Of a stretch of 9,636 nt of DNA, positions 3,432 through 7,162 are shown one piece after another. This stretch comes from a virus (lineage: Duplodnaviria; Heunggongvirae; Uroviricota; Caudoviricetes): the IMG/VR virus record IMGVR_UViG_2529292736_000006; one strand, given 5' to 3'. The translations under genes were made by a program, and so were the position numbers. Within the stretch, counting starts at the first letter, position 1. The number at the start of each line of letters is the position of its first letter. The notes under the pieces are model-generated. The model saw nothing but the letters and a program-made list of their open reading frames with translations, did no database searches and was not told the DNA's origin.

Positions 3432-3770
3432 TTATATCATTAATTTTGTTTCGTGCCAGCCTTTGGTCACCCAGCATTGTGAGTCACCATTACACGGGCA
3501 TGAATTAACAGGAACTCTCTCGCCGCACTTACCGCAACGTTTTCTGCTGATCGATTTTATACGCCAGCGCACACGTGCATCATCCTGGCGGCTCAGTAAC
3601 GCGATGTACTCACCAAACTCGTAAGGCGCATGCCTGAAGCGGCGCGTGGCTCAGTTACGATCCAGCATTTCAATTTCCTGAGCATCAAGTACAAGCTCCA
3701 GCTTACGCATACCGGATGATGCTTGCTTGGCTCTCTGATCGACTTTGCGCTCTGCTGATGATTTAGCCAT
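3432..3770 (-). pseudogene. Ea8.5-like ORF (N-terminal helical segment plus C-terminal Cys-rich zinc-ribbon-like segment) interrupted by an in-frame TGA
   Basis: A single minus-strand frame reads MAKSSAERKVDQRAKQASSGMRKLELVLDAQEIEMLDRN, then TGA at 3651-3653, then ATRRFRHAPYEFGEYIALLSRQDDARVRWRIKSISRKRCGKCGERVPVNSCPCNGDSQCWVTKGWHETKLMI and TAA at 3432-3434. Candidate starts are ATG 3770 and ATG 3710; the latter gives about 92 codons, close to the 93-aa lambda Ea8.5. Position relative to xis/orf55 and the two-part architecture suggest an Ea8.5 homologue. This is an inference, not a sequence identification. Confidence 0.45.
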
Positions 3771-3963
3771 TCTGCTTTTCCTGCATTAGGAGAAAGACAA
3801 TCATGGCGGCGCGGATACTTCCGGTATCTTTTTACTCGATATTACCCTTCAATGGCACATACAAGAAGAGAGCCATCAACAGGAGTGAGTGAGGAATCGA
3901 CAACCAGCAACGCTTAATTATCTATAGTGTCGTATTTGCTTCATAAAATATGGCGAATAACAC

Positions 3964-3998
3964 AAAGCCCGCAGCAGCTCATTGTGCGGGCTTTTCTT
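3964..3998. terminator. Strong hairpin terminator, possibly bidirectional, downstream of the 204-aa gene
   Basis: Perfect 10-bp stem AAAGCCCGCA / TGCGGGCTTT (3964-3973 and 3985-3994) with an 11-nt loop. The plus strand is followed by CTTTTCTTAT and the minus-strand reading by UUUGUGUUAUU. It lies about 65 bp downstream of the 204-aa ORF stop. Confidence 0.5.
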
Positions 3999-4063
3999 AT
4001 ACATACTTCCTAGAGATAATTCTATGGAGGCATTAAATTAATACTGTCATTGGTAATATCATA

Positions 4064-4678
4064 TTATCTAAAAGTCTTTCCACTTTTAACGTCTAGGTAT
4101 ATTCTGTTCGACAACGTCATTCCTCCGCAATATGTGAAATAGATGTTTTTCCCCTTATTGCTTGATGCCATCCACCCTCCGATTTCCTTAAAGTCGCTTT
4201 CCGTGCAGACCCCTTCGTTTATTAACTTCCTAGCTGCCGAAGAAAACTCTTTTTTGTATATACGGTAGTCATCAGATCCTTTGATTAAAGTATCATCTCC
4301 GCTCGCATTTTCAGCAGGATCTGATGGCCTTTCACTGCTAAGATCACTAAGTTTAACCCATTCTGAAAACTTGCCATTGACGATTCCGTTTTTTCTTGTG
4401 CAGGATTTATTACCTTCTTTAATATATTCGCTTTCCCCTCCCACACATGAGGCTGAATATGGCTCAGTTATACGAACCCATTCACCTTTTTTTTCTAGAA
4501 AATCTACGCCTTCCCTGAAAAATAGTTTCCCAGCCACTCCGCATTTACTTGAAGGGCAGGTATGTCTTTCCGTTCGATCAACAACAACCCAAAGTCTTGA
4601 TTCATTTTTTGCCATTGCCGATGGTATTTGAGATGAGACAATTAACGTAAGCCCTAAAATTAGTATTGATTTTTTCAT
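4064..4678 (-). CDS. Secreted or periplasmic Cys-rich hypothetical protein (204 aa), AT-rich accessory gene (moron); function unknown
   Basis: ORF with ATG at 4678 and TAA at 4064-4066; AAGGA ribosome-binding site 7 nt upstream. The N-terminus MKKSILILGLTLIVSSQIPSAMA-KNE looks like a Sec signal peptide with an AxA cleavage motif and no lipobox Cys. The mature part has 7 Cys and the gene is AT-rich. Confidence 0.85.
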   Translation of the reverse strand: MKKSILILGLTLIVSSQIPSAMAKNESRLWVVVDRTERHTCPSSKCGVAGKLFFREGVDFLEKKGEWVRITEPYSASCVGGESEYIKEGNKSCTRKNGIVNGKFSEWVKLSDLSSERPSDPAENASGDDTLIKGSDDYRIYKKEFSSAARKLINEGVCTESDFKEIGGWMASSNKGKNIYFTYCGGMTLSNRIYLDVKSGKTFR

Positions 4679-4763
4679 TGTAATTTCCTTTTACTTTTTA
4701 CAAAGCGTTTAATCATGGCTGATTATCTTTAAGCGTAGTAACAGCCTTGTGCGAAACATGTTA

Positions 4764-4768
4764 CCAAA
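4764..4768. repeat. IS2 target-site duplication CCAAA (left copy)
   Basis: CCAAA directly abuts the IS2 terminus at 4769 and is repeated at 6100-6104. Confidence 0.85.
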
Positions 4769-4779
4769 TGGATTTGCCC

Positions 4780-5685
4780 CTATATTTCCAGACACCTGTT
4801 ATCACTTAACCCATTACTGGCCTGCTGCCGCAGATATTCCCGTGGCGAGCGATAACCCAGTGCACTATGCGGATGCCATTCGTTATAATGCTCGAACGCC
4901 TCTGCAAGGTTCTTTGCTGCCGTTAACCCGTCTGGTTTAGGCATGATACTGATGTAGTCACGCTTTATCGTTTTCACGAAGCTCTCTGCTATGCCGTTAC
5001 TCTCCGGACTCCGCACCGCCGTGTTCTTCGGTTCAAGCCCCAACATCCGGGCAAACTGCCGTGTTTCATTAGCCCGGTAGCATGAACCATTATCCGTCAG
5101 CCACTCTACTGGAGACGCCGGAAGCTCGTTGCCGAAGCGGCGTTCCACCGCTCCCAGCATTACGTCCTGTACTGTTTCACTGTCGAAGCCGCCCGTAGTG
5201 ACTGCCCAGTGCAGTGCCTCACGGTCACAGCAGTCCAGCGCGAACGTGACTCGCAGTTTTTCTCCGTTATCACAGCGGAACTCGAACCCGTCAGAGCACC
5301 ATCGTTGATTGCTTTCTTTCACGGCCACTTTGCCAGTATGTGCCCGTTTCGATGGCGGTACAGCGGTTTTTCGCTCAAGCAACAGCGCATTCTGGCGCAT
5401 GATCCGGTAAACACGTTTGGCATTGATCGCAGGCATACCATCAAGTTCGGCCTGTCTGCGAAGCAGCGCCCATACCCGACGATAACCATACGTGGGCAGC
5501 TCTCCGATAACATGGTGTATACGGAGAAGCACATCCGTATCATCTGAGTGACGGCTGCGGCGACCATCTTTCCAGTCATCGGTTCGTCTGAGAATTACGT
5601 GCAACTGCGCACGCGACACCCGGAGACAACGGCTGACTAAGCTTACTCCCCATCCCCGGGCAATAAGGGCGCGTGCGCTATCCAC
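4780..5685 (-). CDS. insD: IS2 transposase OrfB (InsD, DDE integrase-like domain; normally expressed as an OrfAB fusion)
   Basis: 301-aa ORF ([34 protein letters not shown]...NRCLEI) recognised as IS2 InsD. It overlaps orfA in the -1 frame. Confidence 0.9.
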
Positions 5686-6008
5686 TTTTTTGCACGCCCG
5701 TATTCAACGGCTTCTTTAAGGAGTTCATTTTCCATCGTTTTTTTGCCGAGCAGGCGCTGGAGTTCTTTAATCTGCTTCATGGCAGCAGCAAGTTCAGAGG
5801 CAGGAACGACCTGCTCTCCTGCGGCCACAGCAGTAAGACTTCCCTCCTGGTATTGCTTGCGCCAGAGAAATAACTGGCTGGCTGCCACACCGTGTTGCCG
5901 GGCAACAAGGGAGACCGTCATTCCCGGTTCAAAACTCTGCTGAACAATAGCGATCTTTTCCTGTGTAGTACGCCGTCTGCGTTTCTCCGGTCCTAAGACA
6001 TCAATCAT
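5643..6008 (-). CDS. insC: IS2 OrfA (InsC, helix-turn-helix regulator, 121 aa)
   Basis: [56 protein letters not shown]... with ATG at 6008. The track's 136-aa version starts at an upstream in-frame ATG inside the inverted repeat and is probably not used. Confidence 0.9.
5685..5691 (-). other. IS2 A6G slippery motif for programmed -1 frameshifting (OrfA to OrfAB)
   Basis: AAAAAAG on the minus strand (plus-strand CTTTTTT at 5685-5691) in the orfA/orfB overlap, where IS3-family elements frameshift. Confidence 0.6.
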
Positions 6009-6099
6009 CTGCTCTCCAATGACTAGTCTAAAAACTAGTATTAAGACTATCACTTATTTAAGTGATATTGGTTGTCTGGAGATTCAGGGGGCCAGTCTA

Positions 6100-6104
6100 C
6101 CAAA
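6100..6104. repeat. IS2 target-site duplication CCAAA (right copy)
   Basis: Identical 5-mer directly abutting the other IS2 terminus. Confidence 0.85.
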
Positions 6105-6312
6105 TCGCCATTTCAGTGTATCCGCAGTTAGGCTGCCACTTCAAGGATTCCTAATTACATGGTACGTAAGCGTAAAATCCCGTTGGTTGTCGGGTAATAA
6201 CTCTGATCAAATCTCCCTTGTCTTTTGCTCTTACGTATGCAGCTCTTGTGTATTCAACCCAGGCCTCCAGTTCAGCAATACGCTTACTTCCATCCGAGAT
6301 AACACCTTCTAC
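6100..6312 (-). other. Protein-like in-frame continuation of the Ea22-like ORF beyond its TGA (disrupted C-terminal part)
   Basis: Same frame as the 83-aa ORF. After TGA (6313-6315) it reads VEGVISDGSKRIAELEAWVEYTRAAYVRAKDKGDLIRVITRQPTGFYAYVPCN, then TAG (6151-6153), then ESLKWQPNCGYTEMAIW up to the IS2 junction. No ATG or GTG start occurs in this stretch and the other two frames are closed. Confidence 0.45.
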
Positions 6313-6564
6313 TCACGCTGCTCGTTGAGTTTTGATTTTTGCTGTCTCCAGCTCAACACGCAGTTTCCTCACCGTTAGCGCAATATCCTCGTTCTCCTGG
6401 TCGCGGCGTTTGATGTACTGCTGGTTTCTTTCCCGTTCATCCAGCAGTGTCAGCACAATCGATGGTGTTACCAGCTCATGGAAAAGGTCCGCGTCAAATC
6501 CCCAGTTGTCATGCATTGCCTGCTCTGCCGCTTCACGCAGTGCCTGAGAGTGAATTACGCTCAC
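6313..6564 (-). CDS. Ea22-like N-terminal segment (83 aa as a conventional ORF; coiled-coil-like)
   Basis: ORF MSVIHSQALREAAEQAMHDNWGFDADLFHELVTPSIVLTLLDERERNQQYIKRRDQENEDIALTVRKLRVELETAKIKTQRAA. Its start overlaps the upstream TraR-like gene stop by 4 nt (ATGA). Its position relative to exo, orf60a and orf63 matches where I recall lambda ea22 starting. Confidence 0.6.
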   Translation of the reverse strand: MSVIHSQALREAAEQAMHDNWGFDADLFHELVTPSIVLTLLDERERNQQYIKRRDQENEDIALTVRKLRVELETAKIKTQRAA

Positions 6565-6782
6565 TTCGAACCTCTCTGTTTACTGATAAGTTCCAGATCC
6601 TCCTGGCAACTTGCACAAGTCCGACAACCCTGAACGGCCAGGCGTCTTCGTTCATCTATCGGATCGCCACACTCACAACAATGAGTGGCAGATATAGCCT
6701 GGTGGTTCAGGCGGCGCATTTTTATTGCTGTGTTGCGCTGTAATTCTTCAATTTCTGATGCTGAATCAATGATGTCTGCCAT
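6561..6782 (-). CDS. TraR/DksA-family C4 zinc-finger protein (73 aa)
   Basis: MADIIDSASEIEELQRNTAIKMRRLNHQAISATHCCECGDPIDERRRLAVQGCRTCASCQEDLELISKQRGSK. A CxxC...(17)...CxxC motif with a preceding helical segment is typical of phage and plasmid TraR-like proteins. Confidence 0.8.
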   Translation of the reverse strand: MADIIDSASEIEELQRNTAIKMRRLNHQAISATHCCECGDPIDERRRLAVQGCRTCASCQEDLELISKQRGSK

Positions 6783-6830
6783 CTTTCATTAATCCCTGAA
6801 TTGTTGGTTAATACGCTTGAGGGTGAATGC

Positions 6831-6858
6831 GAATAATAAAAAAGGAGCCTGTAGCTCC
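6831..6858 (-). terminator. Weak candidate intrinsic terminator after the 93-aa ORF
   Basis: On the minus-strand transcript: 5-bp stem GGAGC/GCTCC (plus-strand 6844-6848 and 6854-6858), 5-nt loop, then UUUUUUAUUAUU. The stem is short. Confidence 0.3.
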
Positions 6859-6880
6859 CTGATGATTTTGCTTTTCATGT

Positions 6881-7162
6881 TCACCGTTCCTTAAAAACGC
6901 CGTTTAACATGCCGATTGCTAGGCTTAAATGAGTCGGTGTGAATCCCATCAGCGTTACCGTTTCGCGGTGCTTCTTCAGTACGCTACGGCAAATGTCATC
7001 GACGTTTTTATCCGGAAACTGCTGTCTGGCTTTTTTGATTTCAGAATTAGCCTGACGGGCAATGCTGCGAAGGGCGTTTTCCTGCTGAGGTGTCACTGAA
7101 CAAGCCCCATGTCGGCAAGCATAAGCACACAGAATATGAAGCCCGCTGCCAGAAAAATGCAT
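6881..7162 (-). CDS. Hypothetical 93-aa protein in the orf61 / ea22-orf63 interval
   Basis: ORF MHFSGSGLHILCAYACRHGACSVTPQQENALRSIARQANSEIKKARQQFPDKNVDDICRSVLKKHRETVTLMGFTPTHLSLAIGMLNGVFKER. It is the only long frame here. Its relationship to lambda orf61 could not be settled from memory. Confidence 0.55.
   Translation of the reverse strand: MHFSGSGLHILCAYACRHGACSVTPQQENALRSIARQANSEIKKARQQFPDKNVDDICRSVLKKHRETVTLMGFTPTHLSLAIGMLNGVFKER

Follow-up and report, generated by a model that had tools for sequence, protein, structure and literature searches.

A complete copy of the insertion sequence IS2 is located in the non-coding 5′ leader of a prophage cargo gene encoding a 204-aa protein. Taken as a whole, the evidence very probably describes an ordinary IS2 insertion that met a stop codon by coincidence and whose effect on expression of the cargo gene is deduced from the arrangement of the sequences. 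The window, i.e., the whole stretch of DNA that was analyzed, comprises 9,636 nt (IMG/VR virus record IMGVR_UViG_2529292736_000006). Its minus strand carries gam, bet, exo, small ORFs, a DksA/TraR-like gene, an Ea22-like gene and the 204-aa gene. The same lambdoid early-left region continues with a DUF2513 gene, xis and int, followed by ybhC. Since ybhC adjoins int/xis, the prophage sits on the att-lambda side. A search of the window against Rfam revealed no family. The features of the inserted element and its immediate borders are as follows.

4769-6099, minus strand: IS2, complete, 1331 bp, with the IRL tip at 6099 and the IRR tip at 4769
6058-6099, minus strand: IRL, 42 bp, beginning TAGACTGGCCCCC (IR alignment, end definition according to PMC3299598)
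4769-4809, minus strand: IRR, 41 bp, ending GGGGCAAATCCA (IR alignment)
5643-6008, minus strand: IS2 orfA, InsC-type, 121 aa from the ATG, HTH_Tnp_1 (Pfam)
4780-5685, minus strand: IS2 orfB frame, 301 codons, HTH_21 and rve DDE core (Pfam; also rve_3)
4764-4768, no strand: target-site duplication CCAAA, IRR side, single copy in the empty site
6100-6104, no strand: target-site duplication CCAAA, IRL side, single copy in the empty site

The interval 4764-6104, with which the preliminary description dealt, thus corresponds to IS2 plus both copies of the duplication. IS2 is characterized by a 42-bp IRL ending with TA, a 41-bp IRR ending with CA, and an A6G frameshift site (PMC3299598). In the present copy, the frame of orfB is shifted by -1 with respect to that of orfA, the A6G slippery sequence AAAAAAG occupies 5685-5691 (IS2 positions 409-415), and the orfB stop codon is located 11 nt from the IRR tip. 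Over its 1331 bp the copy showed 100% identity to many E. coli genomic copies annotated as IS3-family transposase, 95.5% identity to the copy annotated as 'insertion sequence:IS2' in the SfX record, and 96.5% identity to a copy annotated as InsC/InsD. Length, identity, both IRs, the 5-bp duplication, orfA, orfB and the A6G site all agree with IS2, and the copy, as judged from its sequence, is full-length and intact, as had been proposed.

The CCAAA repeats had been interpreted as an intact target-site duplication, to be checked by comparison with related prophages lacking IS2, and this comparison proved them to be a true 5-bp duplication. An empty-site query in which both flanks were joined with one CCAAA matched without interruption in 126 of the 5426 complete E. 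coli genomes (identity up to 99.9%), in Chlobot, an isolated and viable phage, and at 35 of the 36 IMG/VR loci from E. coli, the remaining locus having an IS1. The IS-free relatives have a single CCAAA, and none with a different junction sequence was found. The occupied left junction (200 nt each of flank and IS2, at least 80% coverage), on the other hand, was present in none of the 5426 complete E. coli genomes, an exact 37-mer of the occupied junction was matched neither by GTDB representative genomes nor by JGI metagenome contigs, and no phage record covered it. The absence of the occupied site from all four collections, as opposed to the common empty site, fits the proposal that the insertion is recent. 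Elements of the IS3 family, to which IS2 belongs, move by a copy-out/paste-in route through a minicircle. IS2 would have entered the lambdoid prophage in this manner. It left the usual 5-bp CCAAA duplication, and its target was the non-coding spacer between the Ea22-like remnant and the 204-aa cargo gene.

In the preliminary description, the stop codon of the Ea22-like frame was taken as the precise point of insertion. This part had to be abandoned, as the real stop codon is a TAG at 6151-6153, which lies 51 nt before IS2 when the duplication is counted. The Ea22-like frame is divided as follows.

6313-6564, minus strand: Ea22-like N-terminal ORF, 83 aa, Pfam Ead_Ea22 (PF13935), E 9e-20, ending with TGA
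6151-6312, minus strand: Ea22-like frame remnant, 53 codons, ...FYAYVPCN, with the true stop TAG at 6151-6153

The Ea22-like DNA is 95% identical to lambda ea22, from which the window differs by a +1 (A) and a -4 indel, and homology is lost at about 6266. The 83-aa ORF ends at the TGA because of the +1 frameshift relative to lambda ea22. Read onward, the frame gives ...QRAA, a stop, VEGV...FYAYVPCN, a second stop, ESLKWQPNCGYTEMAIW and a further stop, and is consequently closed twice, by the TGA at 6313-6315 and the TAG at 6151-6153, before the residues EMAIW. Because of these in-frame stops, the EMAIW frame does not represent the end of the Ea22-like gene. Both stops are kept in the IS-free relatives FORC_081 and Chlobot, and in every relative inspected, IS-free ones included, the Ea22-like gene was classified by PGAP as frameshifted and incomplete (pseudogene).

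The open stretch that remains before IS2 (ESLKW...EMAIW) comprises 17 codons, and its sole ATG is located four codons from the end. When the 53-aa segment plus the 17-aa tail was searched against 5.8 billion protein clusters, 10 matches were obtained, none of which covered more than 75% of the query or extended past the first 53 residues. The five matches whose sequence was read all end with ...FYAYVPCN, and the matches that were read (or their Pfam assignments) had differing N-terminal partners. A tblastn search against phages for an intact Ea22-like protein ending with EMAIW yielded only Chlobot, which has the same stops, and in a P1/P7-like homologue of the region (L011) a 1-nt indel breaks the EMAIW frame. 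The Ead_Ea22 domain is therefore present in the window, whereas the frame leading to the claimed stop is interrupted and homologues with an ESLKW...EMAIW C-terminus were not found in these searches. According to these comparisons the Ea22-like gene has decayed to a remnant in each of the relatives examined, and the EMAIW tail belongs to no known protein and reads as a non-coding stretch.

The codon arithmetic behind the claim that IS2 regenerates the stop is literally right: the next codon after GAA ATG GCG ATT TGG is TAG (6097-6099) in the presence of IS2 and TAA (4761-4763) when the site is empty. The TAG following the duplication is formed by the first three bases of IRL, which starts with TAG whatever the site, and the frame was already closed twice upstream. 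A stop directly after the 5-bp duplication in one of the three frames is expected by chance with a probability of about 14% (3 x 3/64). The apparent stop regeneration is a coincidence and has no coding consequence. A plus-strand ORF across the site (95 aa, ATG at 4758), which is annotated in Chlobot, was treated as spurious; it is antisense to the Ea22 remnant, has no PHROG match and was not called by PGAP.

Downstream of the remnant, the 204-aa gene and the DNA in front of it are arranged as follows.

6105-6150, minus strand: upstream part of a 136-nt conserved 5′ region, cut off by IS2, including the 17-codon stretch
4679-4763, minus strand: downstream part of the conserved 5′ region, still joined to the gene, with the conserved GATAAT and the RBS region AAAGGAA
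4064-4678, minus strand: 204-aa gene, predicted exported protein with signal peptide, phrog_8310

The P1/P7-like element contains a homologue of the 204-aa gene (89% protein identity) adjoining a UmuD-like gene. When this element is compared with the window in its empty-site form, DNA homology begins at 6156 and ends at 4062 and so covers precisely the 136-nt spacer and the CDS, and the identity of the spacer (77%) can be compared with that at third codon positions (72%). The shared borders indicate that the 136-nt spacer is part of a single portable cassette with the 204-aa CDS, common to lambda-like and P1/P7-like elements. Since the spacer travels with the CDS, IS2 lies in the 204-aa gene's own conserved non-coding 5′ region, with the insertion point 46-51 nt past the stop of the remnant and 85-90 nt before the ATG. 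L064 was left out of the comparison, as it looks like a bisulfite-converted assembly. Two RNA structures were considered but not adopted. A hairpin that spans the empty site (z = -2.57) lacks a T-run behind it, and comparison with L011 by hand gave two wobble-compatible changes and one break; a small hairpin before the RBS (UAAUCA/UGAUUA) is broken in L011, also by hand comparison.

The 204-aa protein has a typical signal peptide (MKK...SAMA before K; MKKSILILGLTLIVSSQIPSAMA followed by K), and its structure was modelled by AlphaFold2 with a pLDDT of 90.4. On this basis it is a predicted exported protein with an N-terminal SH3b-like domain; for the C-terminal domain no structural match was obtained. 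The protein had no match in Pfam or PADLOC, and phrog_8310 is a family without known function. The gene is present in 133 of 5426 E. coli genomes, and homologues of the protein occur in Pseudomonas and Aeromonas, the Pseudomonas gene being located beside an integrase. The CDS also contains an A8 run, at which +1 and -1 slips were seen.

The position of IS2 about 90 bp upstream of this gene and in the same orientation was confirmed, as the IRR tip (4769) is located 90 bp from the ATG (4678) and both lie on the minus strand. Given this distance and orientation, expression of the 204-aa gene may well change. The effect in the lysogen depends on which of two candidate promoters is real, and the insertion is located directly downstream of the first and upstream of the second, the conserved GATAAT.

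6115-6144, minus strand: candidate native promoter, -35 TTGAAG at 6144-6139, 18-nt spacer, -10 TACACT at 6120-6115

The predicted start of the TTGAAG/TACACT candidate lies near 6108, a few nucleotides before the IS2 insertion point. Its hexamers and their spacing are identical in the P1/P7-like homologue, whereas the sequence of the spacer between them has diverged. The GATAAT (4727-4722) agrees with the -10 consensus at five of six positions, is located 41 nt beyond the IRR tip and is likewise conserved in this homologue. If a native promoter based on this GATAAT were retained, the insertion would be a neutral passenger without measurable effect. We regard this as rather unlikely, even though the IS1 insertion of the E. 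coli ATCC 8739 lineage pairs a good -35 region with the very same GATAAT. No acceptable -35 region is present 15-19 nt from GATAAT, and the homologue deviates by 2 nt in the distance that separates GATAAT from a conserved block, CGCACAAGGCTGTT, whereas the TTGAAG/TACACT spacing is kept. We therefore favor TTGAAG-18-TACACT as the presumed native promoter, based on two lineages. Neither candidate passed a stricter consensus scan. The footprint draws on two diverged lineages because the more diverged upstream regions could not be aligned: those from Aeromonas, Pseudomonas and other viral contigs gave no alignable 5′ region. An extended -10 motif straddling the duplication, TGGTAACAT, was discarded, as L011 has not conserved it (AGACAT) and the -35 region that goes with it is poor in both the empty and the occupied site.

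Transcripts from the upstream promoter, if this is the native one, now have to run through 1.3 kb of sense-oriented IS2, and as a consequence expression of the 204-aa gene in the lysogen is probably reduced. This differs from a full polar block, in which IS2 would terminate pL transcription and uncouple the 204-aa gene, the DUF2513 gene, xis and int from the early-left operon, so that the prophage would excise poorly. Such a block is unlikely in our view. Its premise is plausible, in that IS2 separates exo/bet/gam from the 204-aa gene, xis and int, with all of these genes on the minus strand, and most of orfB would be translated only after a rare frameshift, leaving the RNA open to Rho. IS2 carries Rho-dependent terminators in a galEP3 reporter (PMC8141534), in which its orientation may differ from that found here. 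As IS2 is situated between a promoter and downstream genes, as in galEP3 (PMC8141534), Rho-dependent polarity is possible. Within IS2, however, the minus strand showed no terminator-like site. In its present orientation the IS2 RNA is G-rich (C/G 0.81), and 78-nt windows with C exceeding G account for 142 of 1254 on this strand compared to 1044 of 1254 on the opposite strand. A G-rich sense RNA should be a poor substrate for Rho, which suggests that the classic IS2 polarity belongs mainly to the opposite orientation.

A further point against a polar block is that N-modified lambda pL transcription resists Rho-dependent as well as intrinsic terminators. It reportedly also passes polar IS insertions, a result ascribed to Adhya, Gottesman and de Crombrugghe in 1974. 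We assume N antitermination for the present prophage, whose nutL and N lie outside the window. If pL transcription is N-antiterminated after induction, expression of xis and int is probably little affected, and the effect on induced pL transcription as a whole, including these two genes, is probably small. The expectation that IS2 blocks read-through from pL is thus doubtful: polarity of the galEP3 type is possible, but the G-rich RNA, the lack of a terminator-like site and the resistance conferred by N speak against a strong block.

A leader insertion that probably lowers lysogenic expression of the 204-aa gene also has to be weighed against the opposite effect, namely that IS2 turns this gene on, either by a fusion promoter or by read-out from an IS2 promoter. 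In published IS2 fusion promoters IRR faces the downstream gene (review PMC9330008), as it does here; orfB stops 11 nt from the IRR tip with no terminator-like site after it within IS2; and the IS1 of the ATCC 8739 lineage, at nearly the same place, creates TTGGCA-16-GATAAT before the 204-aa gene. Activation is nevertheless improbable. The IS2 junction promoter requires exactly 17 nt between the -35 region in IRR and the -10 region (PMC3299598), and by this 17-nt spacer rule the outward -35-like hexamer TGGAAA within IRR would be the -35 region of the minicircle junction promoter. The flank hexamer at the required distance is TTGGTA, which matches TATAAT at one of six positions, and the better hexamers TAACAT and GATAAT are located 21 and 57 nt from the -35-like hexamer. 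A scan of the occupied junction accordingly found no pair of an IRR -35 and a flank -10 at 17 nt. Because the hexamer at the required spacing is TTGGTA, a fusion promoter at IRR was ruled out on both spacing and sequence. Moreover, the right-end 150 bp of wild-type IS2 had no detectable promoter activity (PMC12095673), and PIRL is weak and repressed by OrfA (PMC3299598). Since orfB ends 11 nt from the IRR tip without a terminator-like site, the IS2 promoter PIRL should be read out into the 204-aa gene, and this weak read-out may partly replace the expression lost by the insertion.

Besides IS2, IS1 elements have entered the same cassette in other E. coli strains, at about 4736 in the ATCC 8739 lineage, at 4502-4510 in 1332KP and at 4465-4474 in the PSJ-14 group. 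Together with the present IS2 this makes four independent IS events within about 300 bp of the 204-aa gene. The clustering could mean that an exported SH3b cargo gene is under recurrent selection on its expression; IS2 would then have adaptively tuned down or rewired an envelope protein that is costly or useful only under certain conditions, and would not be a neutral hit in AT-rich DNA. We consider this a long shot. That a repeat-induced misjoin in the assembly put an IS2 copy here is scarcely credible: IS2 is multicopy (median of 4 places per genome) and the junction was seen in this window alone, but both junctions are exact at the IS2 tips, and the 5 bp that occur once in the empty site are perfectly duplicated, a signature of transposition that would not be expected from misassembly.

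For annotation, the IS2 copy should be described as an intergenic or 5′-leader insertion and not as a stop-codon insertion, and the Ea22-like gene as a pseudogene remnant ending at 6151-6153. As a side result, the spacer and the SH3b gene emerge as a portable cassette that has repeatedly been struck by IS elements. The resulting series of natural alleles (intact, leader with IS2, IS1 fusion promoter, IS1 knock-outs) could be used to probe the role of the 204-aa gene. Beyond a correct annotation, the insertion is of little importance: the element is a known one, the non-coding site that it occupies had not been recorded before, and the biology is ordinary.

The closest known system is IS2 of E. 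coli K-12, a member of the IS3 family, with which the present copy shares its length, the IRs, the TA.../...CA termini, the A6G -1 frameshift and the 5-bp duplication. The element itself does not differ from that of K-12; only the insertion site had not been recorded before. The three IS1 insertions in the same cassette have other consequences, as those of 1332KP and the PSJ-14 group break the CDS and that of ATCC 8739 builds the near-consensus promoter TTGGCA-16-GATAAT, neither of which applies to IS2 here. In the ampC fusion promoter (Jaurin and Normark, 1983, as summarized in PMC9330008), the outward -35 region of IRR likewise points at the downstream gene, whereas in the present case no -10-like hexamer is found at 17 nt and the hybrid promoter is not formed. 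In galEP3 (gal3), a polar IS2 at the start of the gal operon, IS2 is likewise located between a promoter and downstream genes. The upstream operon in the present case, however, is a lambdoid pL operon that is normally N-antiterminated, and IS2 is inserted in the orientation with the G-rich RNA, from which that of galEP3 may differ.

Carriers of the cassette formed by the 136-nt spacer and the 204-aa gene show four IS events in total within ~300 bp, in an AT-rich region (34-42% GC). The IS2 of the window is one of them, and three IS1 insertions are listed below with the other features considered here.

Features in and around the cassette (window coordinates)
4465-4474: IS1 inside the 204-aa CDS, PSJ-14 group (locus L006)
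4502-4510: IS1 inside the 204-aa CDS, strain 1332KP (locus L004)
4722-4746: IS1 in the 5' region of the 204-aa gene, E. coli ATCC 8739 (locus L005, 1860-2640)
~4479-4486, coding strand: A8 run, codons 62-64 of the 204-aa gene
4758 to 6378, plus strand: 95-codon ORF of the empty site, from ATG 4758 over the IS2 insertion point
6133-6105 plus 4768-4734, minus strand: spacer hairpin, predicted fold of the empty-site form
6154-6280, minus strand: tail of the Ea22 remnant, ending in AELEAWVEYTRAAYVRAKDKGDLIRVITRQPTGFYAYVPCN and a stop codon
6842-6860, minus strand: terminator-like hairpin AGGGAGCTACAGGCTCCTT followed by a T-run
6156 to 4062, IS2 left out, minus strand: cassette (4090-4848 in L011, the P1/P7-like element)

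The two IS1 copies within the 204-aa CDS arose independently in other E. coli and break the gene; both insertions show a duplication of 9-10 bp. Five records of the ATCC 8739 lineage have an IS1 directly next to window position 4735, ~58 bp ahead of the 204-aa gene ATG; ~10 bp (4736-4745) are missing and a target duplication is absent at this site. The outward end of this IS1 and the adjoining flank read TTGGCA-16 nt-GATAAT ahead of the gene, which, by its sequence, is a predicted near-consensus fusion promoter. The clustering of the four events could reflect either an insertion hot spot or selection.

For the uninterrupted spacer, a long imperfect hairpin is predicted (MFE -35.2 kcal/mol, z = -2.57). 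The IS2 target falls in the apical part of this fold, and the ATCC 8739 IS1 deletes its 3' arm. No T-run follows this hairpin, and the backing that the predicted fold receives from a single diverged homologue is ambiguous. On the gene strand, the interval 3900-6900 holds a single terminator-like hairpin, AGGGAGCTACAGGCTCCTT, located directly upstream of the DksA/TraR-like gene.

Within the cassette, the window differs from its closest IS-free relatives solely at position 4541 (G vs A), a synonymous change in Cys46 of the 204-aa protein. Two IMG/VR contigs (L043 and L044) carry length changes of +1 and -1, by which the protein is cut off at codons 66 and 70. We infer that these changes lie in the A8 run, where they could represent slipped-strand variation or homopolymer sequencing errors.

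The 95-codon plus-strand ORF is an annotated CDS in Chlobot, an IS-free phage relative carrying the empty site. It is probably spurious, since it runs antisense to the Ea22 remnant (the decayed Ea22-like frame upstream of the spacer), matches no PHROG and is absent from the PGAP gene calls. The tail of this remnant occurs in database proteins behind N-terminal parts that have nothing in common, among them DksA-like, Gam-like (PF06064) and RecT (PF03837) sequences, and looks like a recombination-junction fragment accompanying module exchange in the early left region. Beside the 204-aa gene, the stretch 3573-4063 contains no ORF of at least 40 aa on the gene strand; the annotation of relatives lists there a hypothetical gene interrupted by a stop codon, together with a truncated "DNA repair protein" (UmuD-like remnant), and in Chlobot the position is occupied by an intact UmuD-like gene.

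The 136-nt spacer and the 204-aa gene share 85% nucleotide identity between the lambda-like prophages and the P1/P7-like element, in which a UmuD-like gene precedes them, and homology is lost sharply at either end. On this sequence comparison, they are a discrete cassette common to lambda-like prophages and the P1/P7-like element.
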